The notes: generated from the letters alone by a model not told the origin. A stretch of 64,000 nt of DNA from Chloroflexota bacterium (GCA_016223105.1 JACRPR010000072.1:7982-71981), one strand, 5' to 3'. Shown: positions 2,664-62,364, numbered from the stretch's first letter. Numbers and translations are program-made.

Positions 2664-3344
2664 ATGAAATTTTCTCTTAACTTTGATTCCGACGTTCAAG
2701 TTCTTTTGCCGGATGGAAGCAAACGTTCGCTCATGTCCTTTCTGATTCCGAACGCGCTGTTGATGTTTGCCGCGCTCGTGTTGATGGTTTCGATGATGTT
2801 GCCGTACTGGAGTATGTCGCTCAAAGCACCGCAATACCCCAAAGGGCTCAAGGTCAACGTCTACGTCAATCATCTCGAAGGCGATGTGCGCGAGATTGAT
2901 TCGCTCAATCATTATTTGGGTATGCCGCCGCTTGATGAAGGCGGACGCTTTGAACGCTCGATCTCCATCGTCGCGATCGCGACCCTGGGTTTACTTTTGC
3001 TCGCCGGTGTGTTTGTGCATAATCAATTCGCGGCTCTGCTCGCCTTGCCCGCGCTCGGCTACCCCTTGATTTTTCTCGCGGACTTGTGGTACATTCTGTA
3101 CCAGTACGGGCACAGCATTGATCCCAAGTCTGCGCTCGGCGGCGCGATCAAACCATTCACGCCGCCGGTTTTTGGCGAAGGCAAAATCGGTCAGTTCGGC
3201 ACATTTGCCGCCCCTGAAATCGGTTTATACCTCGCGATTTTTTCCGCGCTGATCGTCCTCGCCGGCTTGTGGTTTCATCGCGCCGCGTACAAACCTCTTG
3301 TGGATGCGCGCAAACGCGTTCACGCTAGCAAGGCAACTGCATGA
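2664..3344 (+). CDS. Integral membrane protein in the nosB position (NosB-like)
   Basis: 226 aa, about 4 predicted TM helices with a periplasmic loop. Sits directly downstream of nosZ. Its stop overlaps the nosD start (ATGA at 3341-3344). The assignment rests on gene position in clade II nos clusters, not on a recognised motif. Confidence 0.45.
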   Translation: MKFSLNFDSDVQVLLPDGSKRSLMSFLIPNALLMFAALVLMVSMMLPYWSMSLKAPQYPKGLKVNVYVNHLEGDVREIDSLNHYLGMPPLDEGGRFERSISIVAIATLGLLLLAGVFVHNQFAALLALPALGYPLIFLADLWYILYQYGHSIDPKSALGGAIKPFTPPVFGEGKIGQFGTFAAPEIGLYLAIFSALIVLAGLWFHRAAYKPLVDARKRVHASKATA

Positions 3345-5650
3345 AATTGCGAATCGCGATCCTGGTTTTTAGCGCGCTCGCGTTGATCTCGATCAGCCGC
3401 GCGCACGCGCAAACCGCGAACCTCTCGCACGCGCCCGCGCTCGTCGTCTCGCCGACCGGTCCCTTCACCACGATTCAATCTGCGCTCGATGCCGCGCGCC
3501 CGGGCGATCACATTCGCGTCGAGCGCGGCGTGTACGCCGGTCCGATTATCGTCACCAAATCAGTTACGCTCGAAGGCGAGAATTTTCCGGTGATTGACAA
3601 CGGCGGCGATGGCACGGTCGTTACGCTCGACGCACCCGGCGCGATTTTGCGCGGCTTTGAATTGCGCGGCAGTGGCGTCGAACCGGATCGCGATCACTCC
3701 GGCATCGCAGTCAACGCGTCGCGCGTGATCGTCGAAAACAATCGCTTGCGCGAAGTATTGTTCGGAATTTTTGTCGCGAAGGCGAGTGATGTAATCGTGC
3801 GCGGGAACGATATTTCAAGCAAATCCGAGTACGACACCGGACGCCAGGGCGACGCGATTCGCTTGTGGTACAGCCCGCGCGCCGTCGTCGAAAATAATTA
3901 CGTGCATCACGCGCGCGATCTGATCGCGTGGTACGCGTCCGATGTGATCATTCGCAATAATCGCGTCGAGCATAGCCGCTACGGCGTGCATCTGATGTAC
4001 TGCGACCATGCGGTGATCGAACACAATCGCATCTTCGATAATTCGGTCGGCATTTACACAATGTACTCGAACGATATTCTTTTGCGCGAAAATTTTATTC
4101 GCGGCACGCGCGGACCGAGCGGTTACGCGCTCGGCTTCAAAGACGCGGACAATGTGCGCGCGACGAACAATGTGCTCGTGGACAATCGCGGCGGATTTTT
4201 TCTCGACAACACGCCGGTTACGCCGCAAGGCGAAGGATTGTTTCGCGACAACATTCTCGCGTTCAACGATGTCGGCGCGATTTTGATGCCGGCGGTGCGC
4301 GGCGCGAATTTTGAACACAACACCTTTTGGGAAAATGTCGAGCAGGTCGCGATTCAAGGAAGCGGCAAACTTGTCGGCAATCACTGGAACGAAAATTTTT
4401 GGAGCGATTATGCGGGCTACGACGCGAACGGTGACGGGCAAGGCGACCTGGCTTATCGGTCGGATCGTTTCTTTGAAGGAATGGCGGATCGCATCCCGAC
4501 ATTGCGCGCGCTGATTTACAGTCCGGTCGCGCAAGCGATTGAATTTGCCGGCTCCGCGTTCCCGATTGTGAAACCACAACCGAAAATGAGCGATCCAAAA
4601 CCGGCGATGCAAGCCGCGCCGATTCCTGGTTTTGCCTTGCCGACGCGCGATGGCGCGGGCGCGATGACCGGCGCGGCAATCGCGTTGTTATTGTTCGGCA
4701 TTGTGTCCGGCGCGTTTTCTGTCATTGCGAGCAAAGCGAAGCAATCCCCAACCGAGACCCGAAGGGTTTTCGGAAACCCTTCGGGTCTGTCCGCGTCCGT
4801 GCGCGTGGAAAATTTTTCCAAGCAGTACGGCAAGGTGCGCGCGATTGAAAACGTTTCGTTCGACGCGCGACCGGGCGAAGCATTGGCATTGTGGGGCGCA
4901 AACGGCGCGGGCAAAACAACTTTGCTCAAAGCAATCCTGGGATTGATTGATTATCGCGGCAAAATTCTGGTCGCCGATTTCGACGCGGCGCGCGCGGGAA
5001 AACAAGCGCGCGCGAACATCGGTTACGTGCCACAAGAAGCGACGTTCTACGATCTCAACGTACAAGCAACGCTCGAATTTTACGCGCGCCTCAAAAAAGC
5101 GGATCCCGCGCGCGTCCCGGTTTTGCTCGAACGCGTCGGACTCGCGGAACATGCGCGCAAACCGGTGCCCGCGTTATCGGGTGGACTCAAGCAACGACTC
5201 GCGCTCGCGGTCGCGCTGTTGAGCGATCCGCCGATTTTACTGCTCGACGAGCCGACCGCGAATCTCGACACACGCGCGCGGCGCGATTATCTCGCGCTCT
5301 TGTCCGCGTTGCATCACGAAGGCAAGACGTTGATCTTTGCGTCGCATCGCATCGAAGAAGTCGAAACGCTCGCGGATCGCGTGTTGATGATCGAAGCCGC
5401 GCAACTCGCCGAGATCATAACGCCGGAAGAATTGCGCGCGCGCCTCGCGACCGAAATCGAAATGACATTGTGGGTTGACGACGCGCAACGCGTCGCCGCG
5501 CGCGATTGTCTCGCGAATGCCGGGTTCGATCCGCGCGTCAACGGGCGCGGCACGGTGATTGTGCGCGTGCGCGCGGAACAAAAAATGCGCGCGTTCGATC
5601 TGCTGAATGAGTGCGGGGTCACGATCAAGAATTTCGAGATCGAGAATTAG
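3341..5650 (+). CDS. nosD-nosF: NosD::NosF fusion: periplasmic beta-helix Cu-maturation protein, TM helix, then ABC ATPase
   Basis: A single 769-codon frame. Signal peptide MKLRIAILVFSALALISISRAHA and a NosD-like repetitive beta-helix body. TM segment MTGAAIALLLFGIVSGAFSVIA. NosF-like ATPase with Walker A GANGAGKT, signature LSGGLKQR and Walker B LLLDEP. Confidence 0.85.
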   Translation: MKLRIAILVFSALALISISRAHAQTANLSHAPALVVSPTGPFTTIQSALDAARPGDHIRVERGVYAGPIIVTKSVTLEGENFPVIDNGGDGTVVTLDAPGAILRGFELRGSGVEPDRDHSGIAVNASRVIVENNRLREVLFGIFVAKASDVIVRGNDISSKSEYDTGRQGDAIRLWYSPRAVVENNYVHHARDLIAWYASDVIIRNNRVEHSRYGVHLMYCDHAVIEHNRIFDNSVGIYTMYSNDILLRENFIRGTRGPSGYALGFKDADNVRATNNVLVDNRGGFFLDNTPVTPQGEGLFRDNILAFNDVGAILMPAVRGANFEHNTFWENVEQVAIQGSGKLVGNHWNENFWSDYAGYDANGDGQGDLAYRSDRFFEGMADRIPTLRALIYSPVAQAIEFAGSAFPIVKPQPKMSDPKPAMQAAPIPGFALPTRDGAGAMTGAAIALLLFGIVSGAFSVIASKAKQSPTETRRVFGNPSGLSASVRVENFSKQYGKVRAIENVSFDARPGEALALWGANGAGKTTLLKAILGLIDYRGKILVADFDAARAGKQARANIGYVPQEATFYDLNVQATLEFYARLKKADPARVPVLLERVGLAEHARKPVPALSGGLKQRLALAVALLSDPPILLLDEPTANLDTRARRDYLALLSALHHEGKTLIFASHRIEEVETLADRVLMIEAAQLAEIITPEELRARLATEIEMTLWVDDAQRVAARDCLANAGFDPRVNGRGTVIVRVRAEQKMRAFDLLNECGVTIKNFEIEN
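4721..4749 (+). repeat. Family C half-element (GTCATTGCGAGCAAAGCGAAGCAATCCCC) inside the nosD::nosF linker
   Basis: Same motif as the left arm of the 79-bp element at 19355-19433. Translated here as VIASKAKQSP. Confidence 0.7.
4755..4788. repeat. Palindrome family P copy (AGACCCGAAGGGTTT-tcgg-AAACCCTTCGGGTCT), in frame in the nosD::nosF linker
   Basis: 15-bp perfect arms with a 4-nt loop. Translated as ETRRVFGNPSGL. Confidence 0.85.
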
Positions 5651-5727
5651 GGGTTGGAAGTTGGAAGTTGGAAATTAGAGATTGGATTGTCGCGCGAGGC
5701 GCATCCAGCATCCAACGTCCAACTTCA
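5651..5727. repeat. Word-repeat hairpin (GGAAGTT/GGATTGT words) between nosDF and nosY
   Basis: GGTTGGAAGTTGGAAGTTGGAAATTAGAGATTGGAT ... ATCCAGCATCCAACGTCCAACTTC. Confidence 0.7.
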
Positions 5728-5737
5728 AGGAATTACA

Positions 5738-6565
5738 ATGGAATGGCAACTCACCTGGACAATCGCGCAACGCGAATTGCGCGAGGCGTTGAAAAATAAA
5801 TGGTTGTGGTTTTACGCACTCGCGTTCGCGGGACTCGCGCTCGCGTTGTCGCAAGCCGGCGTGGCGTCGGCGGGGTACGCGGGCTTGGGCGGATTCGGGC
5901 GCACGGCGGCGAGTTTGATCAACGCGTTGTTGTTGTTCGTGCCGTTGATGGGCTTGAGCGTCGGCGCGGGCGCGCTCGCGGGAGATCGCGAACGCGGCAC
6001 CTTGTTGTACTTGCTCGCGCAACCGGTGAATCGCGCGGAAATTTTTTTCGGCAAAGCGCTCGGCGCGATGCTCGCGCTCTTCGCCGCGCTCGGGCTGGGA
6101 TTTGGATTCGCGGGGCTGGGTCTCGCATCGTCCGGCGATGGCAACGCGTTCGCGTATTTATCGCTCGCCGGCTATTCGCTTCTGCTCGCGCTCGTGTCAC
6201 TCGGACTCGGTTTCATCATCAGCGCGCTCACGCGCAAAGGCGCGACCGCGGCGGGCGCGGCATTGATCGCGTGGCTCGTCCTGGTTTTCTTTGGCGACCT
6301 CGGCGTGATGGGCGCGGCAGTTTCGTTTCGTCCGACCGCCAGCGCGTTGCTCGCGGTGATGCTCGTCAATCCCTTACAAGTATTCAAACTCGCGGCGATC
6401 TACAATTTGCGCGCGACGCTCGACACACTTGGCTCGGTGGGGCAATACGCGGATTATGAATTCGGCGCGGCGTTGCCGTTTATCTTGTTCGGTTTGCTCG
6501 CGACCTGGATCATCGCGAGTTTCGGCATCGCGTTCGCACTCTTCAATCGGCGCGGCGACCTATGA
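5738..6565 (+). CDS. nosY: NosY, ABC-2-type permease of the NosDFY complex
   Basis: ATG 5738 (AAGGA at 5727-5731); the longer 5654 start lies within the repeat hairpin. Polytopic membrane protein, MEWQLTWTIAQRELREALKNKW..., positioned after nosF. Confidence 0.8.
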   Translation: MEWQLTWTIAQRELREALKNKWLWFYALAFAGLALALSQAGVASAGYAGLGGFGRTAASLINALLLFVPLMGLSVGAGALAGDRERGTLLYLLAQPVNRAEIFFGKALGAMLALFAALGLGFGFAGLGLASSGDGNAFAYLSLAGYSLLLALVSLGLGFIISALTRKGATAAGAALIAWLVLVFFGDLGVMGAAVSFRPTASALLAVMLVNPLQVFKLAAIYNLRATLDTLGSVGQYADYEFGAALPFILFGLLATWIIASFGIAFALFNRRGDL

Positions 6566-7053
6566 GAAAATCCCAATTACCAATTACCAATTACCAATTA
6601 CTCCTGGGTTTGAGTTTGCTGATTGCGCTATTCCTGAGCGCGTGCGCGCAACCAACCGGCGAGCCGAAACCGCCGGACATTGTGTACAATCGCGATATGT
6701 GCGAAGCGTGCGGAATGATTATCAGCGATGCGCGCTTTGCCGCCGCGACGTTGACGACAGACGGACGATCGCTCAAGTTCGATGACGCGGGCGAAATGTT
6801 CGGTTATCACGCGCGCAATTCCCAGGTTCAAGTGCGCGCGTGGTTCGTCCACGATTACGATTCGCAAAAATGGATCAATGGCAAGGACGCGTTTTACGTG
6901 ATCGCGCGCGACATCAAATCGCCGATGGGCACCGGCGTCGCGACATTCGCAGAGCGCGCGAACGCGGAAACTTTGGCGAAACGCTTCAACGTCAATGTGT
7001 TGACCTTCGATCAAGCTTTCACGGCAATCAAGGAGGGCAAATCGGGAATGTAA
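6562..7053 (+). CDS. nosL: NosL copper-chaperone lipoprotein
   Basis: Start overlaps the nosY stop (ATGA). Lipobox LSAC. DMCEACGMII metal-binding motif typical of NosL. Confidence 0.85.
   Translation: MRKSQLPITNYQLLLGLSLLIALFLSACAQPTGEPKPPDIVYNRDMCEACGMIISDARFAAATLTTDGRSLKFDDAGEMFGYHARNSQVQVRAWFVHDYDSQKWINGKDAFYVIARDIKSPMGTGVATFAERANAETLAKRFNVNVLTFDQAFTAIKEGKSGM
6574..6601 (+). repeat. Tandem heptamer (CAATTAC)x4 inside the nosL 5' end
   Basis: Four exact 7-nt units, translated as PITNYQLL in the signal-peptide n-region. Related word runs at 33557-33611 and 48075-48102. Confidence 0.9.
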
Positions 7054-7104: not shown

Positions 7105-7491
7105 ATGAAACTGCGAATGGTCTTACTCTTTTGCGTCATCGCGTTGGGCTTGACGATTGCCGCGTGCGGCGGTGGCGCGGGCGGCGCGCAACCCGCCGGC
7201 GACCGGAAGGGCGACGCGACGAAAGGCAAAACCAAGTTCGATGGAACGTGCGTCTCCTGCCACGGACCGGATGCCAAGGGCTTGCCCGGTCTCGGCAAGG
7301 ATATGACAACGAGCGCGTTCATCAAAGGTCAAACCGATCAGCAATTAGTTGATTTCGTCAAAAAGGGACGCACCGCAAATGATCCGGCGAACACGACCAA
7401 AGTGGATATGCCGGCAAAGGGCGGCAATCCCGCATTGACCGATTCAGATTTGTTCGATGTCATTGCGTACGTTCGAACGTTGATGAAGTAA
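7105..7491 (+). CDS. Monohaem c-type cytochrome lipoprotein, candidate electron donor to NosZ
   Basis: GGAGG RBS. Lipobox LTIAAC. A single CVSCH haem-binding motif. Distal Met candidate in VDMPAKG. Confidence 0.8.
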   Translation: MKLRMVLLFCVIALGLTIAACGGGAGGAQPAGDRKGDATKGKTKFDGTCVSCHGPDAKGLPGLGKDMTTSAFIKGQTDQQLVDFVKKGRTANDPANTTKVDMPAKGGNPALTDSDLFDVIAYVRTLMK

Positions 7492-7496
7492 GAACA

Positions 7497-7542
7497 AGAC
7501 CCGAAGGGTTCGCTTTGCGAAACCGCTTCGGGTCTCTTTTTT
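7497..7542. terminator. Family P palindrome (degenerate copy) acting as a convergent-gene terminator
   Basis: AGACCCGAAGGGTT-cgctttgcga-AACCGCTTCGGGTCT followed by CTTTTTTATTT. Lies between the cytochrome c stop (7491) and the stop of the minus-strand gene (7541). Confidence 0.7.
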
Positions 7543-10365: not shown

Positions 10366-10402
10366 CAAAAACCCGAAAGGTTTTCGAAAACCTTTCGGGT
10401 TT
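10366..10402 (-). terminator. Family P-like palindrome with U-tract, terminator of the FKBP gene
   Basis: AAACCCGAAAGGTTTTCGAAAACCTTTCGGGTTT, followed on the minus strand by TTTTGTTT. Lies 8 nt after the stop at 10410. Confidence 0.7.
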
Positions 10403-10409
10403 ATCGCTT

Positions 10410-10802
10410 TCATTTCACATCCAACAACTCGACTTCGAACACGAGCGTCGCGTTTGGTGGAATCACACCGCCCGCGCCGCGCGCGCCGTAACCCAGTTCC
10501 GGCGGAATCGTCAATTTGCGTTTGCCGCCGACTTTCATTCCGGCGACGCCTTGATCCCAGCCCTTGATCACTTGCCCCGCGCCCAGCACAAACGTGAATG
10601 GTTCTTTGCGATCATACGATGCATCGAATTGTTTGCCATCGGTCAATGTGCCGCGATAATGGACCGTAACGCGATTACCGACTTTCGCTTCCGCGCCGGT
10701 GCCGATTTGCAAATCCTGGATCACCAATTGATTTGGATTCGCCGGCGCGGAACACGCGACAACCGTGACCAGGATCGCGATCAATCCGAAGAATTTTTTC
10801 AT
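10410..10802 (-). CDS. FKBP-type peptidyl-prolyl cis-trans isomerase, lipoprotein
   Basis: [17 protein letters not shown] signal/lipobox. Complete FKBP domain ending ...[27 protein letters not shown]. Confidence 0.88.
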
Positions 10803-10836: not shown

Positions 10837-11088
10837 CTAACCCAGCTCCGGCGGAATCGTCAGTTTGCGTTTGCCGCCGACCTTCATCCCGGCGACGCCT
10901 TGATCCCAGCCCTGGATCACTTGCCCCGCGCCAAGCGCAAACGCAAACGGTTGCATGCGATCGTACGACGCATCGAATTGTTTGCCGTTCGTCAACGTGC
11001 CGCGATAATGCACGGTGACGCGTTTGCCCGCGACCGCTTCCGCACCCGCGCCGATTTGCAAATCTTCAATTATAAGTTGGTTCGACAA
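10837..11088 (-). pseudogene. Truncated tandem FKBP duplicate (a 48-nt internal deletion creates a TAG)
   Basis: TTG start at 11088 after AAGGAG. Aligns with 10410..10802 up to PPELG, then TAG at 10837-10839. The in-frame remnant FEVELLEVG* follows. Confidence 0.65.
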
Positions 11089-12406: not shown

Positions 12407-12467
12407 GATTTCAAATTTCAAATTTCAGATTGATGAATCTGAAATCTGCAATCTGAAATCTGAAATT
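12407..12467. repeat. Word-repeat hairpin (GATTTCA/AATCTGA words) between ahcY and metK
   Basis: GATTTCAAATTTCAAATTTCAGATT-gatga-ATCTGAAATCTGCAATCTGAAATCTGAAAT. Confidence 0.8.
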
Positions 12468-14530: not shown

Positions 14531-14564
14531 AGACCCGAAGGGTTTTCGAAAACCCTTCGAGTCT
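14531..14564. repeat. Palindrome family P copy, intercistronic
   Basis: AGACCCGAAGGGTTTTCGAAAACCCTTCGAGTCT, between the kinase stop (14568) and the V4R start (14506). Confidence 0.85.
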
Positions 14565-14567
14565 GGT

Positions 14568-16255: not shown

Positions 16256-17293
16256 TCACTTGACTGCCCGCATCACCCGCGCTAGATTTTCTACAAACGG
16301 CGGACGCACGACGCCGCGTTCCGTTACGAGCGCGGTGATGTACTTGTGCGGCGTTACATCGAACGCGGGATTGCCGACGCGCACACCATCGGGCGCGATC
16401 GGCACGCCTTCGATGTGCGTTACTTCGCGCGCGTCGCGTTCTTCGATTTCGATCAGATCACCGTGCGCCAAATTCAGATCAATCGTCGAAGTTGGCATCA
16501 CCGCGTAAAATGGAATCCCATTTTCATGCGCGACGACCGCGACCTTGTACGTGCCGATCTTGTTCGCGACATCGCCGTTCGCCGCGACGCGATCCGATCC
16601 GACGAAACATTTTTTGACGACGCCTTTGCGAAGATAATGCCCCGCGGCATTGTCCGCGATCAACGTCATCGGCACGCCGTATTGCATCAATTCCCACGCG
16701 GTCAACCGCGCGCCTTGTAAACGCGGACGCGTTTCATCCACGAGGACGTGCACGCGCTTGCCTTGCCGATGCGCTTGAATGATGCAACCGAGCGCAGTGC
16801 CAACGTCAACGGTCGCGAGTGGTCCCGTGTTGCAGTGATGCAAAATCGTATCGCCGTCTTCGATCAATGCCGCGCCGTTCTGCGCCATCGCGGTATTGAT
16901 CGCGACATCTTCTTCCGCGATCGTTTGCGCGAGCGCGACGACGAAATCGCGCAAGCCGTGCGCGTCGAGATTCTGCGCGCGCGTCGCGTTCATCACGCGA
17001 TCCAACGCCCACATCAAATTGACCGCGGTCGGACGCGTGGCGCGCAAAATTTTTTCGGCGGCATCGAGATCGCGCAAAAATTCTTCGCGCGAAGTTGCGC
17101 GCGCTTCAATCGCCGCGAGCGCGAGACCGAACGCCGCCGCCGCGCCAATCGCCGGCGCGCCGCGAATCGTCATATCCTTGATCGCGTGTGCGACCGCGCG
17201 ATAATCGCGGCACTCGACGATTTCAAATTGGCGCGGCAGTTTGCGCTGGTCAATCATCTTGACGACATCACCGATCATTTCAATCGTTCGCAT
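16256..17293 (-). CDS. mtnA: S-methyl-5-thioribose-1-phosphate isomerase
   Basis: ATG 17293 (GGAGAG RBS). eIF-2B alpha/beta/delta family: [23 protein letters not shown] ... [19 protein letters not shown]. Confidence 0.85.
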
Positions 17294-17307
17294 CAATCTC
17301 TCCGAGC

Positions 17308-17535
17308 AAAAAAAAATCTCTCCGCGCAAGAGAGAGAACGTCAAAACACGCGTCTCATCTCCCAAGCCAAAGCACAGCGGCTTGCCGGAATTGGCACCGA
17401 TTTAGTTGGATAGTTGATTAGTTGGATAGTTGGTTAGTTGAATGTCAACTATCCAACTATGAAACTATATAACTATTGCACTACCGGTTGCCGAGGTTTC
17501 ACAGGGCCGATCCCTCCACCTCTCTGGATGAGTGT
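17308..17535 (-). promoter_or_regulatory. SAM-I (S-box) riboswitch with an intrinsic terminator, 5' of mtnA
   Basis: Minus-strand RNA: CUCAUCCAGAGAGGUGGAGGGAUCGGCCCUGUGAAACCUCGGCAACC-[~95-nt P3]-GGUGCCAAUUCCGGCAAGC...GGGAGAUGAG. This is followed by UCUCUC-uugcgcg-GAGAGA and U9. Confidence 0.88.
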
Positions 17536-17559: not shown

Positions 17560-17588
17560 TTTATAGCACAAGCGAAATGTTTTGTCAA
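17560..17588 (-). promoter_or_regulatory. Sigma-70-like promoter for the riboswitch-mtnA unit
   Basis: Minus strand TTGACA (17583-17588), 17-nt spacer, TATAAA (17560-17565). Confidence 0.5.
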
Positions 17589-19903
17589 TTTGAAATTTGA
17601 ATCGTGGTGAGCGTGATGTGATCGTCATTGTTCACCGGCAAACGCGCGCCGCCATTCGCGCGATACACGCCGACAAAAATTTTATACGCGCCGGGTGAAA
17701 GATCGCGCGGGATAATCAACGCGTACTCGTCCGCGACAATTTCGCCCGCGTCCCACAATGAAGTTGGATACGCGCCGCTCTGCGGCTGATCATCTTTTTG
17801 CGCGATGATTTTGCCGGTCGCGTCAACGAGATGCATGAACACGGTGTACTCTTGATCTATCGCGCCGCGCGCTTGCCAAAATAATTTCACGCGCAATGAT
17901 TCGCCATCGCGCGCGACCGAATGTCCGACAAGCGCGAGTTGATCCGCGAATTCATAGCGCGCCGGATTTTCGATTTGCACACGCGCTTGCCCAGCGATTT
18001 TGAAGCGCGCGAGCGTCGGCGTGATCGCGTTCCTGCGCGGATCGCGCGCGACCAGGTTTTCGAGCGGCACGCGGCGATAGAGCGTTACGTCAATCCGTCC
18101 GCCGCCCGGTCCGCGCGCGTCGCGCGATAACGGCACGCGATATTCGTCCGCGATAATTTCGCCGACCTGCCACAATCGCGTCGGATACAAACCGCGACCG
18201 GGGAACGCATCCCAGCGTCCGATCACATCACCACGCGCGTCGAGCAAGCGAAGCCCCACCGAAAAATCTTCCGCGATGCGTTCACGCGCGCGCCAATAAA
18301 TCGTGATCGGCAATTCGCCACCGGGCGCAACCGATTTTTGCGCGAGCGCGTAACCGATCAATTCGATCTGATCGTCGAAAATAATTTGCGTCGGATTTGG
18401 CACGCGCGCTTCATCGGAAAAACGCGCGGGCAAAGTGTACGTGGGCGCGATGAGCGTGAAAGGGGCGAGCGCGGCAAAAGTTAAAAGTAAAAAGGTAAAA
18501 ATAAAAAGTAATCCGTAATGCGTGATGCGTAAAATCTGAAATCTGAAATGTGAAATCTGAAATCCGCTCAGCCCGTAGACAAACAAAACTGCCACCGCGC
18601 TGATTGCCGGAAAAATCAGACGACCTTGCGATGCCATCGTGAGCCACGTCCAACGCACCAGCGAGAGATTGATCAGAATGAACCACAGCGCGGGCAACGC
18701 GATCAAACCGGGCAACGCGCGGCGAAAAATTCCGATCACCAAACCAATCAACGCGATCAGCGTGAACGCATCGAGAAGTGTGTACACAATTTCCGGCGCG
18801 ATGATGTTGACGCCGCCGAAATTGCCCCAAAACGAAATGCGAAATCCTTGCAGTTCGCCGAGCAAACTCGCGAACGAAACCGGCGTCGCGCGCCCACCAG
18901 CAATCGCGACCCAAACATTGAACGCTAGCGGATCGTCGTACAGCATCCAGTTGCGCGCGTACCACCAGAACGCGAGCGCGACGACGAGCGCGGCGCAAAC
19001 AAAACTGCCCTTGATAATTTCGAGTGGGTGAGCGGGTGAGTGGGTGAGTGGGAGAATTGCTCCCCCTCTCCCTCTCTTCCCCTCTCCCACTCGGTTTCGC
19101 CATAATAGATACGCGAACACAATCGCCGCGACACCGAGCAAACCCAGGTTACTAATTTTCGTGAGCGCGCCGAGACCCAGCACGATCCCAAGAATGACAA
19201 ACCGTTGCATCGTCGCACCACGCGTAACAAGTCGCGTCATCAGCAACAGCGCGAGCGTCGCGAGCATCGTCGCGAGGTTGTCATTGTTCACCGACGCGCT
19301 GATGAAAATAAACATCGGATTGCACGCGACCAGCGCGGCGGCGAATGCGGGAATGTCATTGCGAGCGAAGCGAAGCAATCCCCACCGCGCGGTGGAGATT
19401 GCTTCGTCGCCAAGGTCGCTCCTCGCAATGACAATTTCGCGCGCGAGCGCGTAGGTCAGCGCGACGGTGAGCGCGGAAAATATAATCGAGAGGAACCGGA
19501 TGAGGTGAACCGCGAGCGCGGTATTATGCCACGGAAAACTTTCCGCGTTCGTGTGGACGATCAAATTCTTGTTGCCAAAAACCAGGGGGATGCCAATTTT
19601 CGCATGCGGGTTGAGCCACACGCGCTCCGGCAAATCGCGCGCGTCAATCCAAAATGTCGCGAGCGCGCTGATCGCATAATACAGCGGTGGCTGTCCGCCC
19701 TCTTGCTCCCACAACGTTTTCACATTCGGGTCTTGGATCGGCAATCCATTCCCGGTCGCGAGATGTTGGATGAACGGATAATGCCAAATCTCATCGCCCG
19801 CTTCAAAAATCGGCGTGAGGATCGAGTACGTGATCGCAAGCGCGAGGAACGCGACCAGGATCAAAATCAGCGCGCGATTATTTGCCCACATAGATCGTTT
19901 CAA
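17585..19903 (-). CDS. GT-C fold membrane glycosyltransferase (GT39/ArnT/PMT-like), paralog 1, with two C-terminal beta-sandwich repeats
   Basis: 772 aa, more than 10 TM helices, first-loop EAGDEIWHYP acidic motif. The C-terminus carries two ~130-aa repeats (YWRA...DFSV / FWQA...EYTVFMHLVD...). Contains several in-frame repeat-derived segments. Confidence 0.7.
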   Translation of the reverse strand: MKRSMWANNRALILILVAFLALAITYSILTPIFEAGDEIWHYPFIQHLATGNGLPIQDPNVKTLWEQEGGQPPLYYAISALATFWIDARDLPERVWLNPHAKIGIPLVFGNKNLIVHTNAESFPWHNTALAVHLIRFLSIIFSALTVALTYALAREIVIARSDLGDEAISTARWGLLRFARNDIPAFAAALVACNPMFIFISASVNNDNLATMLATLALLLMTRLVTRGATMQRFVILGIVLGLGALTKISNLGLLGVAAIVFAYLLWRNRVGEGKRGRGGAILPLTHSPAHPLEIIKGSFVCAALVVALAFWWYARNWMLYDDPLAFNVWVAIAGGRATPVSFASLLGELQGFRISFWGNFGGVNIIAPEIVYTLLDAFTLIALIGLVIGIFRRALPGLIALPALWFILINLSLVRWTWLTMASQGRLIFPAISAVAVLFVYGLSGFQISHFRFQILRITHYGLLFIFTFLLLTFAALAPFTLIAPTYTLPARFSDEARVPNPTQIIFDDQIELIGYALAQKSVAPGGELPITIYWRARERIAEDFSVGLRLLDARGDVIGRWDAFPGRGLYPTRLWQVGEIIADEYRVPLSRDARGPGGGRIDVTLYRRVPLENLVARDPRRNAITPTLARFKIAGQARVQIENPARYEFADQLALVGHSVARDGESLRVKLFWQARGAIDQEYTVFMHLVDATGKIIAQKDDQPQSGAYPTSLWDAGEIVADEYALIIPRDLSPGAYKIFVGVYRANGGARLPVNNDDHITLTTIQISN
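18481..18565. repeat. Word-repeat segment (AAAAGTA, GATGCGT and AATCTGA words) inside GT-C paralog 1
   Basis: TTAAAAGTAAAAAGGTAAAAATAAAAAGTAATCCGTAATGCGTGATGCGTAAAATCTGAAATCTGAAATGTGAAATCTGAAATCC, translated as FQISHFRFQILRITHYGLLFIFTFLLLT. Confidence 0.7.
19022..19093. repeat. Word-repeat hairpin (GGGTGAG / CCCTCTC) inside GT-C paralog 1
   Basis: GAGTGGGTGAGCGGGTGAGTGGGTGAGTGGGAGAATTGCTCCCCCTCTCCCTCTCTTCCCCTCTCCCACTC, translated as GEGKRGRGGAILPLTHSPAHPL. Confidence 0.7.
19355..19433. repeat. Family C 79-bp hairpin element inside GT-C paralog 1
   Basis: GTCATTGCGAGCGAAGCGAAGCAATCCCCACCGCGCGGTGGAGATTGCTTCGTCGCCAAGGTCGCTCCTCGCAATGAC, translated as ...SDLGDEAISTARWGLLRFARNDI. Confidence 0.85.
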
Positions 19904-31979: not shown

Positions 31980-33680
31980 TCAGGGTGAGACCGCAAGTTC
32001 AACCGGCAATTTTCCCCGCGCACTCGCTTTGCCGGTCAACACCTCCGCGAGCGCGTCGATCATCGGCGGATTCGCGCCATAGATTGCGAGGTACGTCGGC
32101 GCGTTTGGAAACGCGAGCAGATCATACGGCGAACGCGTCGCGATCACAATCGTCGGCGCGTTCAGCTTGAGCAACGCGTTCACCAAATCGGCTTGCGCGC
32201 GATTTTTCGCGGCGTCGCTTGTCGCGACGATCACCACGCGACCATCTTCCGCGATTTTCAACACGGACGCGATTTCGCTCTGCGTCGGTTGTGCTTTCAC
32301 TTGCATCGTGGTCGCGCCGAGCAATTTGCCGATCCCAAAATTTCCGGTTTCGATCACAAGCAATTTCGCGTCGAGCTTGAGCGGAACGCGATTCGCGTAA
32401 TCGCGCACGAGCGTAACCGCTTGGTGCGCGACCGCGCGCGAGATTGCTTTCATTTCCGGTGAACCGACGCGAGAGAGTGCGTCTTTCGACTCCGCTTCGC
32501 TCCGCTCAGGACGCGGATTCAAAATTCCGAATTGTTGTTTCGCGCGTAAAATTCGCGCAACGGCTTGATCCAATCGCGTCTGCGAAATCACACCGCGTTG
32601 AACGTGATCCAAAAGTTGCGCGTGCACTTGGCGATGCATCGCGTATCCGGTTTGAAACAGCAAAATGTCCGCACCCGCGCGCAACGCGGCGGACGCGGCT
32701 TGCGGCGCGGGATAGCCGCTTTTCGCGATTGCGCCCATCGTCAACTCGTCCGTCATCACGAGACCGTCGTAGTGCATTTCGTCGCGCAATAATCCGGTCA
32801 ACACATTTGGCGAAAGCGTCCCGGCGAGACCTGGTGTCGGATCAATCGCGGGAAACGTGATGTGCGCGGACATTATCCCGGCGACGTTCGCGCGCATCGC
32901 GGCTTTGAACGGCACGAACTCGATTGATTCGAGTCGCGCGCGGTCATGCGGCACGGACGATAACGCGACATGCGAATCAACCGCGGTGTCGCCGTGTCCG
33001 GGAAAATGTTTTCCAATCGCGATCATCCCCGCGCTTTGCATTGCTTCGATGTACGCGACGCCGTACTCGGCGACGCGCGCGGGATCGGAACTGAACGCGC
33101 GCGTGCCGATGATCGGATTGTTCGCGTTGTTGTTCACGTCGAGGTCGGGCGTCAAATCCATATTAAATCCGAGCGCGCGCATCTCCGCGCTGATCGCCTG
33201 CGCGATGCGCCGCGCGTTCGCGAGATCGTTCGTCGCGGCGACCGCCATTTGGCTGGGAAATTCGGTGAACCCTTTTTCTTCTTTCAGCCGCGCGACGATG
33301 CCGCCCTCCTGATCAATCGTGATCAAGAGCGCGGGATCGCCGTTCGCGCGCATCGCGTTTTGCAAATCCGCATTGAGTTGCGCGACCTGGTTTGGCGATG
33401 CGACGTTGCGATCATAAAAAATCACGCCGCCGATGTGCAGTTGCGTGATCCCTTCGCGCAATTCTGGCGTGAGCGTCGTGCCGTCGAAACCGATCAACAT
33501 CAGTTGACCGATTTTTTGTTCGAGGGAGAGCGAATCGAGAGATTGAGAGAGTGAGCGATTGGGTATTGGCATTGGGGTAATTGGTAAATGGTCAGTGGTA
33601 ATTGGGGTTGGCGCGGGCGCGCAACGGACGAGCGCGACAAGCCATAGGAAAAATGTAATGATGAAAATAAATTTGTTCAT
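31980..33680 (-). CDS. Glycoside hydrolase family 3 (NagZ-like beta-N-acetylhexosaminidase) lipoprotein
   Basis: Signal/lipobox LVALVRC. LEQKIGQLMLIGF, IDQEGGIVARL and KHFPGHGDTAVDSH motifs. Has an extra C-terminal alpha/beta domain. Confidence 0.8.
   Translation of the reverse strand: MNKFIFIITFFLWLVALVRCAPAPTPITTDHLPITPMPIPNRSLSQSLDSLSLEQKIGQLMLIGFDGTTLTPELREGITQLHIGGVIFYDRNVASPNQVAQLNADLQNAMRANGDPALLITIDQEGGIVARLKEEKGFTEFPSQMAVAATNDLANARRIAQAISAEMRALGFNMDLTPDLDVNNNANNPIIGTRAFSSDPARVAEYGVAYIEAMQSAGMIAIGKHFPGHGDTAVDSHVALSSVPHDRARLESIEFVPFKAAMRANVAGIMSAHITFPAIDPTPGLAGTLSPNVLTGLLRDEMHYDGLVMTDELTMGAIAKSGYPAPQAASAALRAGADILLFQTGYAMHRQVHAQLLDHVQRGVISQTRLDQAVARILRAKQQFGILNPRPERSEAESKDALSRVGSPEMKAISRAVAHQAVTLVRDYANRVPLKLDAKLLVIETGNFGIGKLLGATTMQVKAQPTQSEIASVLKIAEDGRVVIVATSDAAKNRAQADLVNALLKLNAPTIVIATRSPYDLLAFPNAPTYLAIYGANPPMIDALAEVLTGKASARGKLPVELAVSP
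32486..32511 (+). repeat. Short repeat TCGACTCCGCTTCGCTCCGCTCAGGA inside the GH3 gene
   Basis: The reverse complement is found at 58387-58412 inside the E2 gene. Translated here as ERSEAESK. Confidence 0.75.
33557..33611 (-). repeat. CAATTAC-type word run inside the GH3 N-terminal tether
   Basis: GATTGGGTATTGGCATTGGGGTAATTGGTAAATGGTCAGTGGTAATTGGGGTTGG, translated as PITTDHLPITPMPIP just after the lipobox. Confidence 0.7.
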
Positions 33681-34810: not shown

Positions 34811-34957
34811 TTGGAAATTGGAAATTAGAAATTGGAAGTTGGAAGACGTGATACGTGATGCGTGATAATCTCACGCATCACGCATCACGTTTTACGTTTT
34901 ACGTTTTACGTTTTACGTTTTACGTTTTACGTTTTACGCTTTACGCTTTACGTTTTA
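34811..34957 (-). repeat. Composite intercistronic element: (ACGTTTT)x10 tandem, a GATGCGT-word hairpin and TTGGAAA words
   Basis: Ten 7-nt units at 34887-34956. Hairpin ACGTGATACGTGATGCGTGA-taatc-TCACGCATCACGCATCACGT at 34846-34890. TTGGAAATTGGAAATTAGAAATTGGAAGTTGGAAG at 34811-34845. The substrate-binding-protein stop at 34955 lies within it. Confidence 0.85.
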
Positions 34958-36889
34958 CTTGATCGTCCAACTTTCCGCGTAGAACGGAATGTATTTGCCT
35001 TCGTTCACATCATAGTACGTGAACGGCGGATAGAGCGCATTGCTCAAGACCGCGCCGCTTGCCATGATGTTGTCCGTCGAATAGAGATTGTAATTCGCTT
35101 TCGGTGGTTGCACGTACGGGTACGAGGTCTTGAATTCTTTCGCGCGATTCGTCGCGCTCGGTTTGAGTTGACCGCTCAAGAGCTGGCGCGCGACCGGCGA
35201 ATTGTTCTGATTGTTTTTGTAAATCTTGTCGTCCACCGGCAACCAACCGGTCACCCGCGTCTTGGTGTCAATCGGATCGGTGAGGTAGCGTTCGAACATC
35301 ATCAAGACGGGCAAACTGTCGTTGAAGAACGATGCGACATCGGCGATGTAGGGTTTTTGTTTTTCCGCGTCAAACCCTTCCGCCATCTTGTCCACCCATT
35401 CCTTGATGTTGATCTCTTTGCCATCCGCGGTTTTTTGCTTGAACGGCAAGTTGATGCCGCGTTCGCCTTCGTTGCCTTCGGGATTGTTTTTCCAACCCGC
35501 GCTCACCACACCCGGGCGCAAGTTGTAATCGAAGGAAACGTACGGGTGAAAGTACGTAAAGCGGAAACCAATGTCCATCGAAATTTGATACTTGCCGGCT
35601 TTGTGGAGGTTGGTGCGTTCGGACGATTGGTACGGCTTGACCGTGATCTTGATGCCGAACTTGGTTAATTGTTGCGCGACGTTTTCGGACGACGCGAGGT
35701 ATTCGGTGAAATCGGCGGGCACGCTCAATTCAAATTCCAGTTTCTTGCCCTTGTCATCCACCCAAATGCCATCCGCGCCTTTTTTGAAATTGAGCCCAGT
35801 CAACAACGCTTCGGCTTTTTTCACATCCGCATCGTACGTGTTGAGTTTGGCAAGTTGCGCGGCGGAAAGCCAGGTCGGCACTGCGGCATCGGTAAAGCCG
35901 GCTTCGTACTTGACCGGGCGGCACGCATCGCCGAACGCAACCTTGCAATTTTCAACGCGATCAATCGCGTACGCGAATGCCTGGCGCACTTCTTTTTTGT
36001 TCAGCGGATAGACATCGTTGTTAAAGTACATCCCGGGTCCGTTCGTCCCAGGTCCGCCGAGCACGACCATGTGATTGCCGACCGCGCGAATCGCTTGCAA
36101 ATTCGCGGGGCTGTACGCGTTCGAGGAATAGTCCATATCGTTCGAGAGATACAATGGCATATCCTGAACGGTGTCGCCCCAGTACACGGTAACTTTGTCG
36201 AAATCAATCTTGTCCGCGTTGAACCCGGACGCGTTCTTGACCATCGTGAATTGCGCTTCGGTAACTTGTTTCGGATCAATGTTGAACGGACCGTAGACGA
36301 TCGCGCTCGGCGGGCGGAACGCGTTCATTTCGTCGAGCGTTTTGGTTACGTCCGCGCTTTTGCGGTCAGTGTTATTTTTGCGAAAACCGGCGGCGGCGTC
36401 CATCCATTTGCCGTACTGCGCGTACGGACGCGTGACGGTCGCGCGCACAATCGTGTCGAGAATCGCGGGACCGGGGGTTTTGATCGTGAACTCGACGGTC
36501 GCGTCATCTTTCGCGACGACATCGTTCAGCGCGTTCCAGGTCGAGCTGGTTTGCATCCACAAAATGTTGTACGTGCCGACGACATCTTTCGAGCTGAACG
36601 CGGAGCCGTCGCTCCATTTCATGCCCTTGCGAAGATTGATCGTGATCGTTGTAACGCCGGGCGCGGCGGGTTTAGTTGGCTCTGCCGGTTTCGTGGCAAC
36701 CGGCGCGGTCGTCGCCGCGGGCTTGGTGGGTTCCGGTGCTTTGGTTGCCGGCACCGCGGTCGGCGGCACCGCCGCCGTTGGTTTCGGCGCGTCGGTCGGT
36801 TTAGGCGCGGGCGTCGGCGTTGGCGCGGCGCACGCGACGAGCGCGACAAGCGCGATCAGCAATGTGAGCGCGAGCAAAATCTTTTTCAT
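34955..36889 (-). CDS. ABC transporter substrate-binding lipoprotein, family 5 (peptide/nickel/oligosaccharide type)
   Basis: Lipobox LVAC followed by a ~60-aa Pro/Thr/Ala tether. Family-5 body (INLRKGMKWSDGSAFSSKDVV...). Confidence 0.8.
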   Translation of the reverse strand: MKKILLALTLLIALVALVACAAPTPTPAPKPTDAPKPTAAVPPTAVPATKAPEPTKPAATTAPVATKPAEPTKPAAPGVTTITINLRKGMKWSDGSAFSSKDVVGTYNILWMQTSSTWNALNDVVAKDDATVEFTIKTPGPAILDTIVRATVTRPYAQYGKWMDAAAGFRKNNTDRKSADVTKTLDEMNAFRPPSAIVYGPFNIDPKQVTEAQFTMVKNASGFNADKIDFDKVTVYWGDTVQDMPLYLSNDMDYSSNAYSPANLQAIRAVGNHMVVLGGPGTNGPGMYFNNDVYPLNKKEVRQAFAYAIDRVENCKVAFGDACRPVKYEAGFTDAAVPTWLSAAQLAKLNTYDADVKKAEALLTGLNFKKGADGIWVDDKGKKLEFELSVPADFTEYLASSENVAQQLTKFGIKITVKPYQSSERTNLHKAGKYQISMDIGFRFTYFHPYVSFDYNLRPGVVSAGWKNNPEGNEGERGINLPFKQKTADGKEINIKEWVDKMAEGFDAEKQKPYIADVASFFNDSLPVLMMFERYLTDPIDTKTRVTGWLPVDDKIYKNNQNNSPVARQLLSGQLKPSATNRAKEFKTSYPYVQPPKANYNLYSTDNIMASGAVLSNALYPPFTYYDVNEGKYIPFYAESWTIK

Positions 36890-36905
36890 TTTCTTCTCCT
36901 CCGAA

Positions 36906-36960
36906 TTAGTTGGATAGTTGAATTGTTGAATTGTTGGATAGTTGGATAGTTGTTGGTTGA
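36906..36960 (+). repeat. One-armed word run (GGATAGTT/GAATTGTT words)
   Basis: TTAGTTGGATAGTTGAATTGTTGAATTGTTGGATAGTTGGATAGTTGTTGGTTGA. Confidence 0.7.
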
Positions 36961-38902: not shown

Positions 38903-39880
38903 TCATGTCGTACGCCAATTCCAACACGCGACGCGATGCCCGCTCGCAATCTCTTCCAGTTCCGGCTCATCGCGTTTGCACCGCGCGTCCGCGCGCGGAC
39001 AGCGCGGATGAAATTTACACCCGCTTGGCAATTCGATCAAGTCCGGCGGCGAACCTGGGATCGAAGTCAAATCTTCTTTCGCGCCTTGAAGCGTCGGCAC
39101 CGCGTTGATCAAGCCAATCGTGTACGGATGCGCGGGCGTTTTGAACGTCGTCGTAACATCTGCAAATTCGACGATTTTGCCGGCGTACACCGTCGCGACA
39201 CGATCGGCGAGTTCGGCGGCGAGCGACAAATCGTGCGAAATAAAAATCAACGAGAAATCGAGTTTGCCGCGCAATTCTTTCAGCACGTCCATAATATTGC
39301 GTTGCGTCAGAATGTCGAGCGCGGTCGTCGGCTCATCGAGAATCAAGAGTTGCGGTTCGAGCAGTAAGCCGAGCGCGATCAGCACGCGTTGCCGCATGCC
39401 GCCGGACAATTCGTGCGGAAACGATTTCCACACGCGTTCCGGATCGAGCCGGACGAGCGTGAGCAAATGTTCCGCGCGTTCTTTCAGCGCGCGCCCTTGC
39501 AAATAGTTATGCGCGCGCGCCGTGTCGCCGAATTGATCCGCGATGCGTAAAACCGGGTTGAGCGAGTTGAGCGCGGATTGAAACACCATCGCGCACTCTT
39601 TCCAACGAAACTCGCGGAGGGCTTTGCCCTTCAGCGTGAGCGCGTCAATCGTTTTATTGTCGCGATGATACAGCGCATTGCCCTGCGTGATCTTCGCGGT
39701 ACTCGGAAGCAATTGCACCACGCCCAAGCCGAGCGTCGTTTTGCCGGAACCGCTTTCGCCGATCAGCGCGAGCGCATCGCCACGCGCAACGTCGAAGGAC
39801 ACGTTGCGAATCGCGCGCACCTTGCCGCGCCGCGCGGCGTATTCGATGGATAAATTTTGAACAGATAAAGTTGGAGGCAT
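38903..39880 (-). CDS. ABC transporter ATP-binding protein (OppD/DppD-like)
   Basis: ATG 39880; the upstream extension is repeat-encoded. Walker A GESGSGKTT, signature LSGGMRQR, Walker B LILDEPTT. Confidence 0.85.
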   Translation of the reverse strand: MPPTLSVQNLSIEYAARRGKVRAIRNVSFDVARGDALALIGESGSGKTTLGLGVVQLLPSTAKITQGNALYHRDNKTIDALTLKGKALREFRWKECAMVFQSALNSLNPVLRIADQFGDTARAHNYLQGRALKERAEHLLTLVRLDPERVWKSFPHELSGGMRQRVLIALGLLLEPQLLILDEPTTALDILTQRNIMDVLKELRGKLDFSLIFISHDLSLAAELADRVATVYAGKIVEFADVTTTFKTPAHPYTIGLINAVPTLQGAKEDLTSIPGSPPDLIELPSGCKFHPRCPRADARCKRDEPELEEIASGHRVACWNWRTT

Positions 39881-39968
39881 AGTTGGATGGTTGGATAGTT
39901 GGGTAGTTGGGTAGTTGAATAGTTGCGTGGTTGGAAGAATTATCCAACTATCCAACTATTCAACTATC
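39880..39968. repeat. Word-repeat hairpin (GGATAGTT/GGGTAGTT words)
   Basis: ATAGTTGGATGGTTGGATAGTTGGGTAGTTGGGTAGTTGAATAGTTG ... TTATCCAACTATCCAACTATTCAACTATC. Confidence 0.75.
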
Positions 39969-42545: not shown

Positions 42546-42549
42546 TTTT

Positions 42550-42625
42550 TATGGGACGCGGATGAGCGCGGAGGAACGCGGATAAAAAAGAATAATCCGC
42601 GTTCGTCCGCGTTTGTCCGCGTCCA
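42550..42625. repeat. Family R ~76-bp hairpin element (copy 1 of 3)
   Basis: TATGGGACGCGGATGAGCGCGGAGGAACGCGGATAAAAAAGAATAATCCGCGTTCGTCCGCGTTTGTCCGCGTCCA. Confidence 0.85.
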
Positions 42626-46212: not shown

Positions 46213-46353
46213 TTTATCTCCTCCTGGAATCCAATCTGAACGATTGACCGAGCAAAGGTCGGGGTAGCCATCCTCCTTTCGATTTTTTATCCGCGAACCC
46301 TGGCACTTGCGTTCCCGCCAGGGCAAGTGTAACGCGAATCTCCGCGAATTTTT

Positions 46354-46430
46354 TATGGGACGTAGATGAACGCAGATGAACGCAGATTTTTTCTTCTTAT
46401 CCGCGTTCGTCCGCGTTTGTCCGCGTCCCA
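46354..46430. repeat. Family R hairpin element (copy 2 of 3)
   Basis: TATGGGACGTAGATGAACGCAGATGAACGCAGATTTTTTCTTCTTATCCGCGTTCGTCCGCGTTTGTCCGCGTCCCA. Confidence 0.85.
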
Positions 46431-58988: not shown

Positions 58989-59002
58989 CCAAGTGAGTTC
59001 CT

Positions 59003-59060
59003 TTATTTCCCTTATTTCCCTCATTTCCGTATCGGGAAATGAGGGAAATGAAGGAAATTA
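59003..59060. repeat. Word-repeat hairpin (GGAAATGA words) between the M24 and E2 genes
   Basis: ATTTCCCTTATTTCCCTCATTTCC-gtatc-GGGAAATGAGGGAAATGAAGGAAAT. Confidence 0.8.
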
Positions 59061-62266: not shown

Positions 62267-62288
62267 TGCGTTCTCCAGACAACGGATT

Positions 62289-62364
62289 TATGGGACGCGG
62301 ACAAACGCGGATGAACGCGGATAATTTTCTCTTGTCCATGTTTGTCCGTGTTAATCCGCGTCCA
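62289..62364. repeat. Family R hairpin element (copy 3 of 3) between E1 alpha and E1 beta
   Basis: TATGGGACGCGGACAAACGCGGATGAACGCGGATAATTTTCTCTTGTCCATGTTTGTCCGTGTTAATCCGCGTCCA. Confidence 0.85.

Follow-up and report, generated by a model that had tools for sequence, protein, structure and literature searches.

To our knowledge, all mechanistic understanding of how the CuZ and CuA centres of nitrous-oxide reductase are assembled derives from the clade I Pseudomonas NosDFY(L) system, in which one NosD sits on NosF2Y2. In the P. stutzeri complexes (PDB 7O0Y, 7O17, 7OSF and related entries), chain counts of 16 NosD in 16 entries, 30 NosF in 15 and 34 NosY in 17 correspond to a D1F2Y2 assembly; NosD and NosF are separate chains, NosD has no transmembrane (TM) helix, and the genes belong to a clade I cluster. 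Here we describe a 64,000-nucleotide stretch of DNA (hereafter the window) from an uncultured Chloroflexota bacterium (GCA_016223105.1, JACRPR010000072.1:7982-71981), which also encodes homologues of NosD, NosF and NosY, with nosL and nosZ adjacent, but does so in a clade II cluster with a Sec-dependent NosZ and a nosB-like gene, and with NosD and NosF joined through a TM helix into one polypeptide. The gene for this polypeptide, nosDF, occupies 3341-5650 on the plus strand, and the DNA at its junction is made of short palindromic repeats. We conclude, with a probability of roughly 85%, that this open reading frame (ORF) is a genuine and old NosD-NosF fusion that acts in Cu-centre maturation of clade II nitrous-oxide reductase, and that the repeats are secondary to it.

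The gene forms a single uninterrupted ORF of 769 amino acids (aa) plus a stop codon, as judged from the ORF call, from Pfam and NCBIfam matches and from homologues. NCBI lists the identical protein P0001, which comes from a Chloroflexi metagenome-assembled genome (MAG), under the name NosD family protein. An earlier reading of the window, made from the nucleotide sequence without database searches (the sequence-only reading), had proposed that this frame encodes, in order, a signal peptide and NosD beta-helix, one hydrophobic helix, a linker and a complete NosF ATPase in an out-TM-in topology; the domain searches, the structural model and the occurrence of the same fusion in hundreds of relatives bear out the beta-helix, the hydrophobic helix, the linker and the ATPase. 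A putative Sec signal peptide comprises aa 1-23 (3341-3409) and ends in AHA; its cleavage site was placed by eye, and the model has a hydrophobic helix at aa 2-25. The NosD beta-helix and C-terminal NosD region follow at aa 45-424 (3473-4612), where the NosD model TIGR04247 scores 369.3 bits against a cutoff of 300 and is covered over its whole length (profile positions 1-377). The same part matches PF05048 (120.8 bits against 23.6) and the Beta_helix family PF13229 (111 bits), and NosD of the P. stutzeri complex (7o0y_A) aligns with aa 57-424 (E = 4.8e-28). In an AlphaFold2 (AF2) model built with an alignment of 28 homologues (A1), regular short strands run from aa 34 to 356 with a predicted local distance difference test score (pLDDT) mostly above 90, which is the pattern of a beta-helix. 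NosD was not among the top 50 matches of a Foldseek search against the PDB, where ABC ATPases dominate, and membership of the NosD family rests on sequence.

The ATPase half, with its C-terminal domain, comprises aa 486-769 (4796-5647). ABC_tran (PF00005) matches aa 503-640 with 104.6 bits, and the Walker A (GANGAGKT), signature (LSGGLKQR), Walker B (LLLDEP) and H-loop (SHR) motifs of a complete ATPase are invariant among the 28 aligned homologues. P. stutzeri NosF (7o0y_B) aligns with aa 486-706 (E = 1.4e-37) and is the best single-domain bacterial match in the PDB; eukaryotic ABCA proteins outscore it, via two domains. The same chain is also a top fold match in Foldseek, with a target-normalised TM-score of 0.70 and 33% identity over 287 columns. 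None of the NosF-specific NCBIfam models reached its cutoff for this part of the protein. We assign the ATPase half to NosF mainly on gene context, as nosY, nosL and nosZ are co-located with nosDF in the manner expected for NosDFY(L) machinery.

Between the two halves lies a single TM helix at aa 439-463 (4655-4729), recognized both as a helix in the AF2 model and by a Kyte-Doolittle value of 2.39 for AAIALLLFGIVSGAFSVIA. The net charge that follows it is positive. The helix continues into a cytoplasmic linker of about 22 aa (aa 464-485; 4730-4795), which is predicted to be disordered (pLDDT below 50 at aa 464-482) and is unconserved in the alignment. The model as a whole agrees with this layout, showing a confident beta-helix at aa 34-356, the helix at aa 439-463 and a confident NosF at aa 487-768. 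The predicted topology, with NosD outside, one TM helix and NosF in the cytoplasm, is supported by the positive-inside pattern. The helix is a regular feature of the fused homologues, since a 19-residue window with a Kyte-Doolittle value of at least 1.6 lies between the NosD and ABC_tran domains in 118 of 120 of them; the 15 residues before the helix carry a mean net charge of +0.4 and the 15 after it +2.4, the charge bias expected of an out-to-in helix.

Two ways in which the gene might yield separate products were considered. Production of NosF from an internal start could use GTG codons at V487 and V489, neither of which has a Shine-Dalgarno-like sequence upstream of it by eye. A frameshift induced by the hairpin in the linker, yielding NosD alone, was rejected as unsupported: the sequence lacks a slippery site, and a ribosome shifted into the alternative frame would meet no stop codon before 4946.

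The fusion is widespread. Among about 5.8 billion proteins searched, 405 matched at E <= 1e-20, and all 120 of the homologues listed carry both NosD and ABC_tran Pfam domains (660-916 aa; 54-88% identity). The assemblies behind these proteins are from NCBI, JGI, ENA and Logan, and those proteins that bear a name are called 'NosD'. When one genome was scanned for each GTDB species, tblastn confirmed 543 stretches; the best 80 of them align with the query from about residue 1-50 through residue 768, at 39-63% identity. The genomes are labelled Anaerolineae, Ardenticatenia, Dehalococcoidia, Aggregatilineales, Calditrichota, Planctomycetota, Tectomicrobia, Eremiobacterota and Poribacteria, such that the NosD-TM-linker-NosF architecture reaches at least six phyla as labelled (39-88% identity in those inspected). 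By a strict regular expression, a stop-free frame extends from the PQPK motif at the C-terminus of NosD to Walker A in 60 sources. The segment from the helix to NosF is unconserved among these homologues, with 50 to 131 residues separating the end of the helix from Walker A. Fused proteins are abundant in databases under the name 'NosD', yet we found no paper that describes the fusion: in the literature searched, a NosD-NosF fusion was described nowhere, and matches to 'nosDF' were prefixes of nosDFY.

Relatives with other architectures help to place the TM helix. We compared the NosD part with 50%-identity representatives in an exhaustive HMMER search, in which 497 of them matched at E <= 1e-30, and checked example architectures with Pfam. 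The relatives fall into length classes, with stand-alone NosD at 430-500 aa and D-F fusions at about 690-810 aa. Larger chains carry an N-terminal extension as well: it measures about 220 aa in P0148 (623 aa), where it precedes NosD; it is joined to NosD and NosF in P0124 (913 aa), and to NosD, NosF and NosY in P0150 (1290 aa). In P0124, this N-terminal part (213 aa) shares 62% identity over 212 residues with the nosB-like protein encoded next to nosDF in the window. The B-D, B-D-F and B-D-F-Y fusions provide Rosetta-stone-type evidence that the NosB-like protein probably belongs to the NosDFY maturation machine. Among the stand-alone NosD homologues inspected, eight of eight end in a TM helix with a short basic tail; the P. 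stutzeri NosD chain stops about 12 residues past the homologous region. Judged from these termini, the TM anchor is an ancestral feature of this type of NosD. As stand-alone NosD already has the anchor, a D-F fusion would need only the loss of the stop codon after its cytoplasmic tail, upon which the anchored NosD would continue into NosF.

We turn now to the repeats at the junction. The sequence-only reading described 4721-4788 as a family C half-element followed immediately by a family P palindrome, and this description holds. The left arm and the start of the loop of a family C element occupy 4721-4754 and encode V461-S469 and onward. Within it, GTCATTGCGAGCAAAGCGAAGCAATCC at 4721-4747 is identical at 26 of 27 positions to 19355-19381 (two matches, against none expected from shuffles), and the bases past the arm also resemble the full copy (CCCCAACCG against CCCCACCGCG); the right arm is absent at nosDF. 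The family P palindrome (D8) at 4755-4788 has a perfect 15-bp stem and a 4-nt loop, encodes E472-L483 and is 94% identical to the copy at 14531-14565. The family comprises seven palindromes in the window, with 14 arm matches against 0.39 expected. Translation of the linker gives VIASKAKQS...ETRRVFGNPSGL, and the first three C-encoded residues complete the TM helix. Since C encodes residues 461-469 and P residues 472-483, and NosF homology starts at about residue 486, the linker is essentially all repeat DNA. Read from the sequence, none of the six frames of the P palindrome contains a stop codon, and only one of the six frames of the C arm does; the reading frame in use is open through both, which are thus translated. 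The peptide that they encode most likely serves as a neutral spacer.

The C element runs into its loop and then abuts P, which places P in or beside the C loop and suggests that P may have inserted into, or recombined at, that loop with loss of the right arm. No target-site duplication was evident on inspection of the four best P copies, and an Rfam scan of the window found a SAM riboswitch only, with no family matching C or P. At the RNA level, 4700-4820 folds with -50.2 kcal/mol (z = -4.0), and in a comparison of the three closest nosDF genes the linker hairpin of the window has z = -4.9. A role for this hairpin as an internal terminator was rejected in a terminator scan, as it has no T-run.

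The statement of the sequence-only reading that both element types otherwise sit between genes does not survive a survey of their other copies. The only other C copy, a full hairpin of 87 nt (19355-19441, z = -4.8), lies within a GT-C/PMT_2 gene on the minus strand (17585-19903, 772 aa), where it is translated in-frame as the 26 residues VIARSDLGDEAISTARWGLLRFARND. In-silico removal of these residues raises the PMT_2 match from 42.9 to 52.3 bits, with the match then spanning the junction, and likewise improves and extends the PMT and DUF2142 Pfam matches; this gain supports the view that the C copy is an in-frame insertion into a domain. Two P palindromes are in-frame in the gene for the E2 acyltransferase of a 2-oxoacid dehydrogenase (57708-59024, minus strand), which has two E3-binding domains at about aa 104-139 and 151-186. 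One (58724-58754) lies between the lipoyl and first E3-binding domains and reads DPKGFVNPSGL; the other (58577-58607) lies in the linker before the second E3-binding domain and reads DPKGLPNPSGL. Each comprises 33 nt, exactly 11 codons. Only four P or P-like copies are intergenic (at 7498, 10370, 14532 and 52707). That at 14532-14563 lies 5 nt past the stop codon of a PfkB kinase gene, and the other three are terminator-like, with T-runs. Altogether, three of seven P copies and both C copies are translated. The same E2 gene also holds a CTGAGCGGAGCGAAG-type fragment (58381-58419, ...PLRSAQDA...) in the linker before its catalytic domain, whose partner at 32479-32517 lies within a GH3 glycosidase ORF.

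In a related E2 orthologue (L083), P is found at both linker sites (929-955 and 1082-1114). The two E2 genes share only 76% nucleotide identity as a whole, and 60% at third codon positions, yet their P arms agree at all 61 positions; the loops differ. The identity of the arms could reflect selection that acts on the stem, conversion between copies of the family, or reinsertion at specific sites.

At the nosDF junction itself, relatives reveal a different picture. The closest relative (P0002, 88% aa identity; represented by two JGI contigs, loci L081 and L082) has the same cluster. The nosDF DNA of the window matches that of L081 at 87% of positions; outside one block, each 60-nt segment has 46-60 identical bases. 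This sole unalignable block, at about 4720-4810, is flanked on both sides by sequence that is in phase. In its place L081 has 30 nt of ordinary sequence and then a complete hairpin of another family, GTCACCCTGAGCGAAGCGAAGGATCTCGC...GCGAGATGCTTCGCTCCGCTCAGCATGAC (z = -7.5), and a more distant relative (L084/P0043, 69% aa identity) has a hairpin of a third family, GGGACGCAGATGAACGCAGATGAACGCAGA...GTCTGCGTCCC (L084 ~1875-1948, z = -5.0). Members of this third family (GGGACGCGGATGAACGCGGAT...ATCCGCGTTCGTCCGCGTTTGTCCGCGTCC, ~77 nt) also occur in the window, between genes, at 42548-42624, 46352-46428 and 62287-62363. Neither the P palindrome nor the C core had a match in 987 kb from 82 related loci under exact and loose searches, against four to seven P copies in the window. 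The C/P insertion at nosDF is thus lacking in L081, L084 and 80 further loci, whereas P is present in the E2 orthologue L083. The hairpins considered here comprise C, P, L-type and GGACGCGGAT-type elements.

More broadly, 50 of 60 orthologous linkers lack a hairpin with a stem of at least 11 bp. The census at this threshold is too noisy in GC-rich DNA (background 0.66 per kb), such that only stems of at least 14 bp are informative; by a tally made by hand, five distinct stems of this length fall in about 9.9 kb of linker DNA and seven in about 137 kb of the rest of the gene, making linkers about 10-fold denser. Many other orthologue linkers hold repeat-type peptides, of the TQMNADERG, tandem SEIASHKPLAMTQAQ and LPITNYQ types. 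Repeat-type peptides also occur at other tolerant sites of NosDF orthologues (P0005, P0023, P0004, P0055/P0061 and P0051). For example, NVIASSFVRSNPPAGQEIASSQKTLFAMT and ACPERSRRAS separate the signal peptide from the mature N-terminus, RDERLEIEQSLVSHLSSP interrupts the ABC domain past the Q-loop region, and in the linker SEIASHKPLAMTQAQ can stand four times in tandem.

The presence of other repeat families in the linkers of the closest relatives indicates repeat turnover within a fusion that already existed. Aligning the window with related nos loci, as the sequence-only reading had suggested, divides its proposal: the TM helix is kept almost throughout, which favours a real fusion, and C and P are absent from the related loci, which disfavours their having given rise to it. 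We conclude that the repeats are recent in-frame insertions, which did not cause the fusion but followed from the tolerance of its linker; the lack of sequence constraint there explains why they persist. In the course of events that we envisage, an old fusion formed by stop-codon loss would have had its linker overwritten in this genome by the lineage-specific C left arm and P palindrome. By homology with P. stutzeri, ATP hydrolysis by a NosF dimer on a NosY dimer would bring about conformational changes through which NosD receives Cu from NosL and delivers it to NosZ.

Several points weigh against this account of an old, functional fusion with secondary repeats. The product of about 83 kDa is predicted from sequence alone, and the window is probably the MAG contig of P0001 itself (one member on one contig), a single source for the exact sequence, in which the junction consists of repeats, a class of sequence that is error-prone in assemblies. 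A covalent link sets D:F at 1:1, in conflict with the D1F2Y2 composition of the P. stutzeri complexes, and a mechanism based on homology may for this reason not transfer unchanged. Finally, the perfect conservation of P arms between E2 orthologues hints at a possible constraint at the nucleotide level, which would sit poorly with neutral passengers.

This last point leads to the alternative that best withstands the evidence, although we regard it as unlikely: that the fusion is ancient but the hairpins are REP-like palindromes kept at domain boundaries for a role at the nucleic-acid level, for instance in binding a protein, in stabilising or processing the mRNA, or in making translation pause between NosD-TM and NosF. 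It draws on the identity of the P arms at the two L083 E2 sites, on the roughly 10-fold enrichment of hairpins in linkers, and on the strong linker hairpins of all three closest nosDF genes. Arm identity could, however, arise equally from gene conversion or from reinsertion at specific sites; hairpins are lacking in most orthologous nosDF linkers; and three families at one site in close relatives speak for turnover rather than conservation. The lack of a T-run in the nosDF hairpin removes a terminator from the candidate roles. A more general proposal, which we hold to be similarly doubtful, is that stop-free hairpin repeats are linker cassettes of Chloroflexi-type genomes that land or persist preferentially at domain boundaries, as in the nosDF and E2 linkers, and replace one another. 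Such cassettes may be kept by nucleotide-level selection, given the identical P arms of the diverged E2 orthologues, and could have been the source of the spacer that was read through in some of the many independent-looking nos fusions (B-D, D-F, B-D-F, B-D-F-Y).

The origin proposed by the sequence-only reading, in which nosD and nosF were separate until recently and became fused in this lineage when a stop-free intercistronic C/P repeat was read through, is very improbable on the present evidence, which refutes it for this lineage. Its appeal is that the linker is almost wholly repeat DNA, that the two elements are open in nearly every frame, and that such repeats do occur between genes. The fusion and its conserved TM helix nevertheless extend to relatives of about 40% identity, and to genomes labelled as several phyla, mostly with non-repeat linkers, and that reading had itself named orthologues fused through a non-repeat linker as evidence against a repeat origin. 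Moreover, the relative at 88% identity is fused without either element, the 987 kb of related loci contain neither C nor P, and the TM anchor pre-exists in unfused NosD homologues. Least probable of all is that the fusion is an assembly or sequencing artefact, in which a collapsed repeat removed stop and start codons or hid a frameshift: the junction does coincide with repeats of a kind prone to error in metagenome assemblies and the exact sequence has a single source, but hundreds of independent assemblies (NCBI, JGI, ENA and Logan) share the continuous architecture, the flanks of the replaced block are in phase with orthologues on both sides, and NosF has no separate start codon with a ribosome-binding site, its homology beginning right after the linker.

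The surrounding cluster follows the clade II order nosZ, nosB-like, nosDF, nosY, nosL and cytochrome c, which is identical in L081 and L082; all six genes are on the plus strand. The Sec-dependent (clade II) nitrous-oxide reductase gene nosZ (540-2573) matches TIGR04246 with 844 bits (cutoff 625) and has nos_propeller and cupredoxin Pfam domains. Directly 3' of it, in the position of nosB, lies the gene for a membrane protein of 226 aa (2664-3344) with zero Pfam or NCBIfam matches. We label it nosB-like for its position, and its identification with Wolinella NosB is positional; in clade II clusters nosB sits immediately downstream of nosZ (PMC11409646). Its stop codon overlaps the nosDF start codon (ATGA). 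On the other side of nosDF, a spacer with GTTGGAA-type heptamer tandem repeats (5651-5737, family D4) precedes the permease gene nosY (5738-6565; 275 aa from the ATG at 5738), which has an ABC2_membrane_2 domain and matches NosY of the P. stutzeri complex (7o0y_D, E = 3e-24); the L081 orthologue likewise has 275 aa.

The copper chaperone lipoprotein gene nosL (6562-7053, PF05573) encodes a protein 90% identical to L081 NosL. A CCAATTA array at 6569-6604 (nosL codons ~3-14) is translated as QLPITNYQL and contributes to the N-region of the lipoprotein signal peptide, which in the window exceeds that of L081 NosL by 7 aa. The cluster ends with a c-type cytochrome gene (7105-7491; Cytochrom_C and Cytochrome_CBB3 domains), and 7 nt past its stop codon a diverged P-like hairpin followed by a T-run (tcttttttatt; 7498-7534, plus strand) is likely the operon terminator. 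Upstream of the nos cluster, a palindrome at 126-187 has 31-nt arms without a spacer (TTGTAAGGGCGAAGCATTTTTTCGCTCTGCG / CGCGGAGCGAAAAAATGCTTCGCCCTTACAA, 97% complementary) and could represent a further repeat family or have a part in regulation.

Repeats are also common elsewhere in the window, which is rich in tandem 7-8-nt units (CCAATTA, GTTGGAA, AGTAAAC, CGTTTTA, AATCTGA and AGTTGGAT), mostly intergenic. Arrays lie at 6569-6604, 5636-5700, 2577-2649, 34867-34956, 12422-12466, 17397-17443, 36885-36955 and 39866-39936, and are reminiscent of the short tandemly repeated repetitive (STRR) sequences of cyanobacteria. The array at 17397-17443, of the AGTTGGAT type, falls inside the matched interval of the SAM riboswitch (RF00162, 74.7 bits, 17352-17534, minus strand), which lies upstream of a 369-aa ORF (16256-17365, minus strand). 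Two direct copies of 245 nt (10489-10733 and 10838-11082) share 84% identity at a distance of 349 nt, beside the P-like hairpin at 10370-10401.

These findings bear on two subjects. In a large group of clade II N2O reducers that abound in the environment, among them Anaerolineae, NosD is encoded as a membrane-anchored protein covalently tied to NosF, and in some relatives the NosB-like protein and even NosY are fused into the same chain, which predicts a different complex geometry. The locus also adds an example from outside Rickettsia of short palindromic repeats that are translated in-frame at disordered linkers and loops and turn over fast between close relatives, and it cautions that a repeat-rich junction alone neither dates nor explains a gene fusion.

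For the repeats, the closest parallel is provided by the Rickettsia palindromic elements (RPEs) and other in-frame MITE insertions; such elements occur between genes and also in-frame within housekeeping genes, at tolerant sites where they contribute a peptide while function is kept (PMC10969869). The palindrome families of the window are similarly found between genes and in-frame in nosDF, E2 and the GT-C glycosyltransferase. They differ in that they are 27-87 nt long, against about 100-150 bp for RPEs, are unrelated in sequence and reside in an uncultured Chloroflexi-type bacterium, and in that several families replace one another at one linker in close relatives. Being shorter than RPEs and unrelated to them, C and P are related to these elements by analogy and not by membership. 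The second parallel is with repetitive extragenic palindromic sequences and bacterial interspersed mosaic elements (REP/BIME), which the elements described here resemble in length (30-40 nt), in density (about one palindrome per 10 kb), in a frequent terminator-like placement just past stop codons, and in being nested or adjacent, like the C arm and P at nosDF. REPs, though, are extragenic by definition, and here almost half of the P copies and every C copy are translated.

For the fusion, a precedent exists in the NosB-NosC2 fusion known from some clade II nos clusters (PMC11409646), which is likewise a membrane-anchored fusion of clade II accessory proteins, with partners other than NosD and NosF. 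The comparison with P. stutzeri turns on stoichiometry: with D and F covalently joined, their ratio is fixed at 1:1, and the complex would either accommodate two beta-helices or leave one tethered but undocked. The covalent link would imply a NosD2F2Y2 machine unlike the solved D1F2Y2 complex, and NosDF is a variant of the NosDFY(L) system in which a TM-anchored NosD is fused to NosF.

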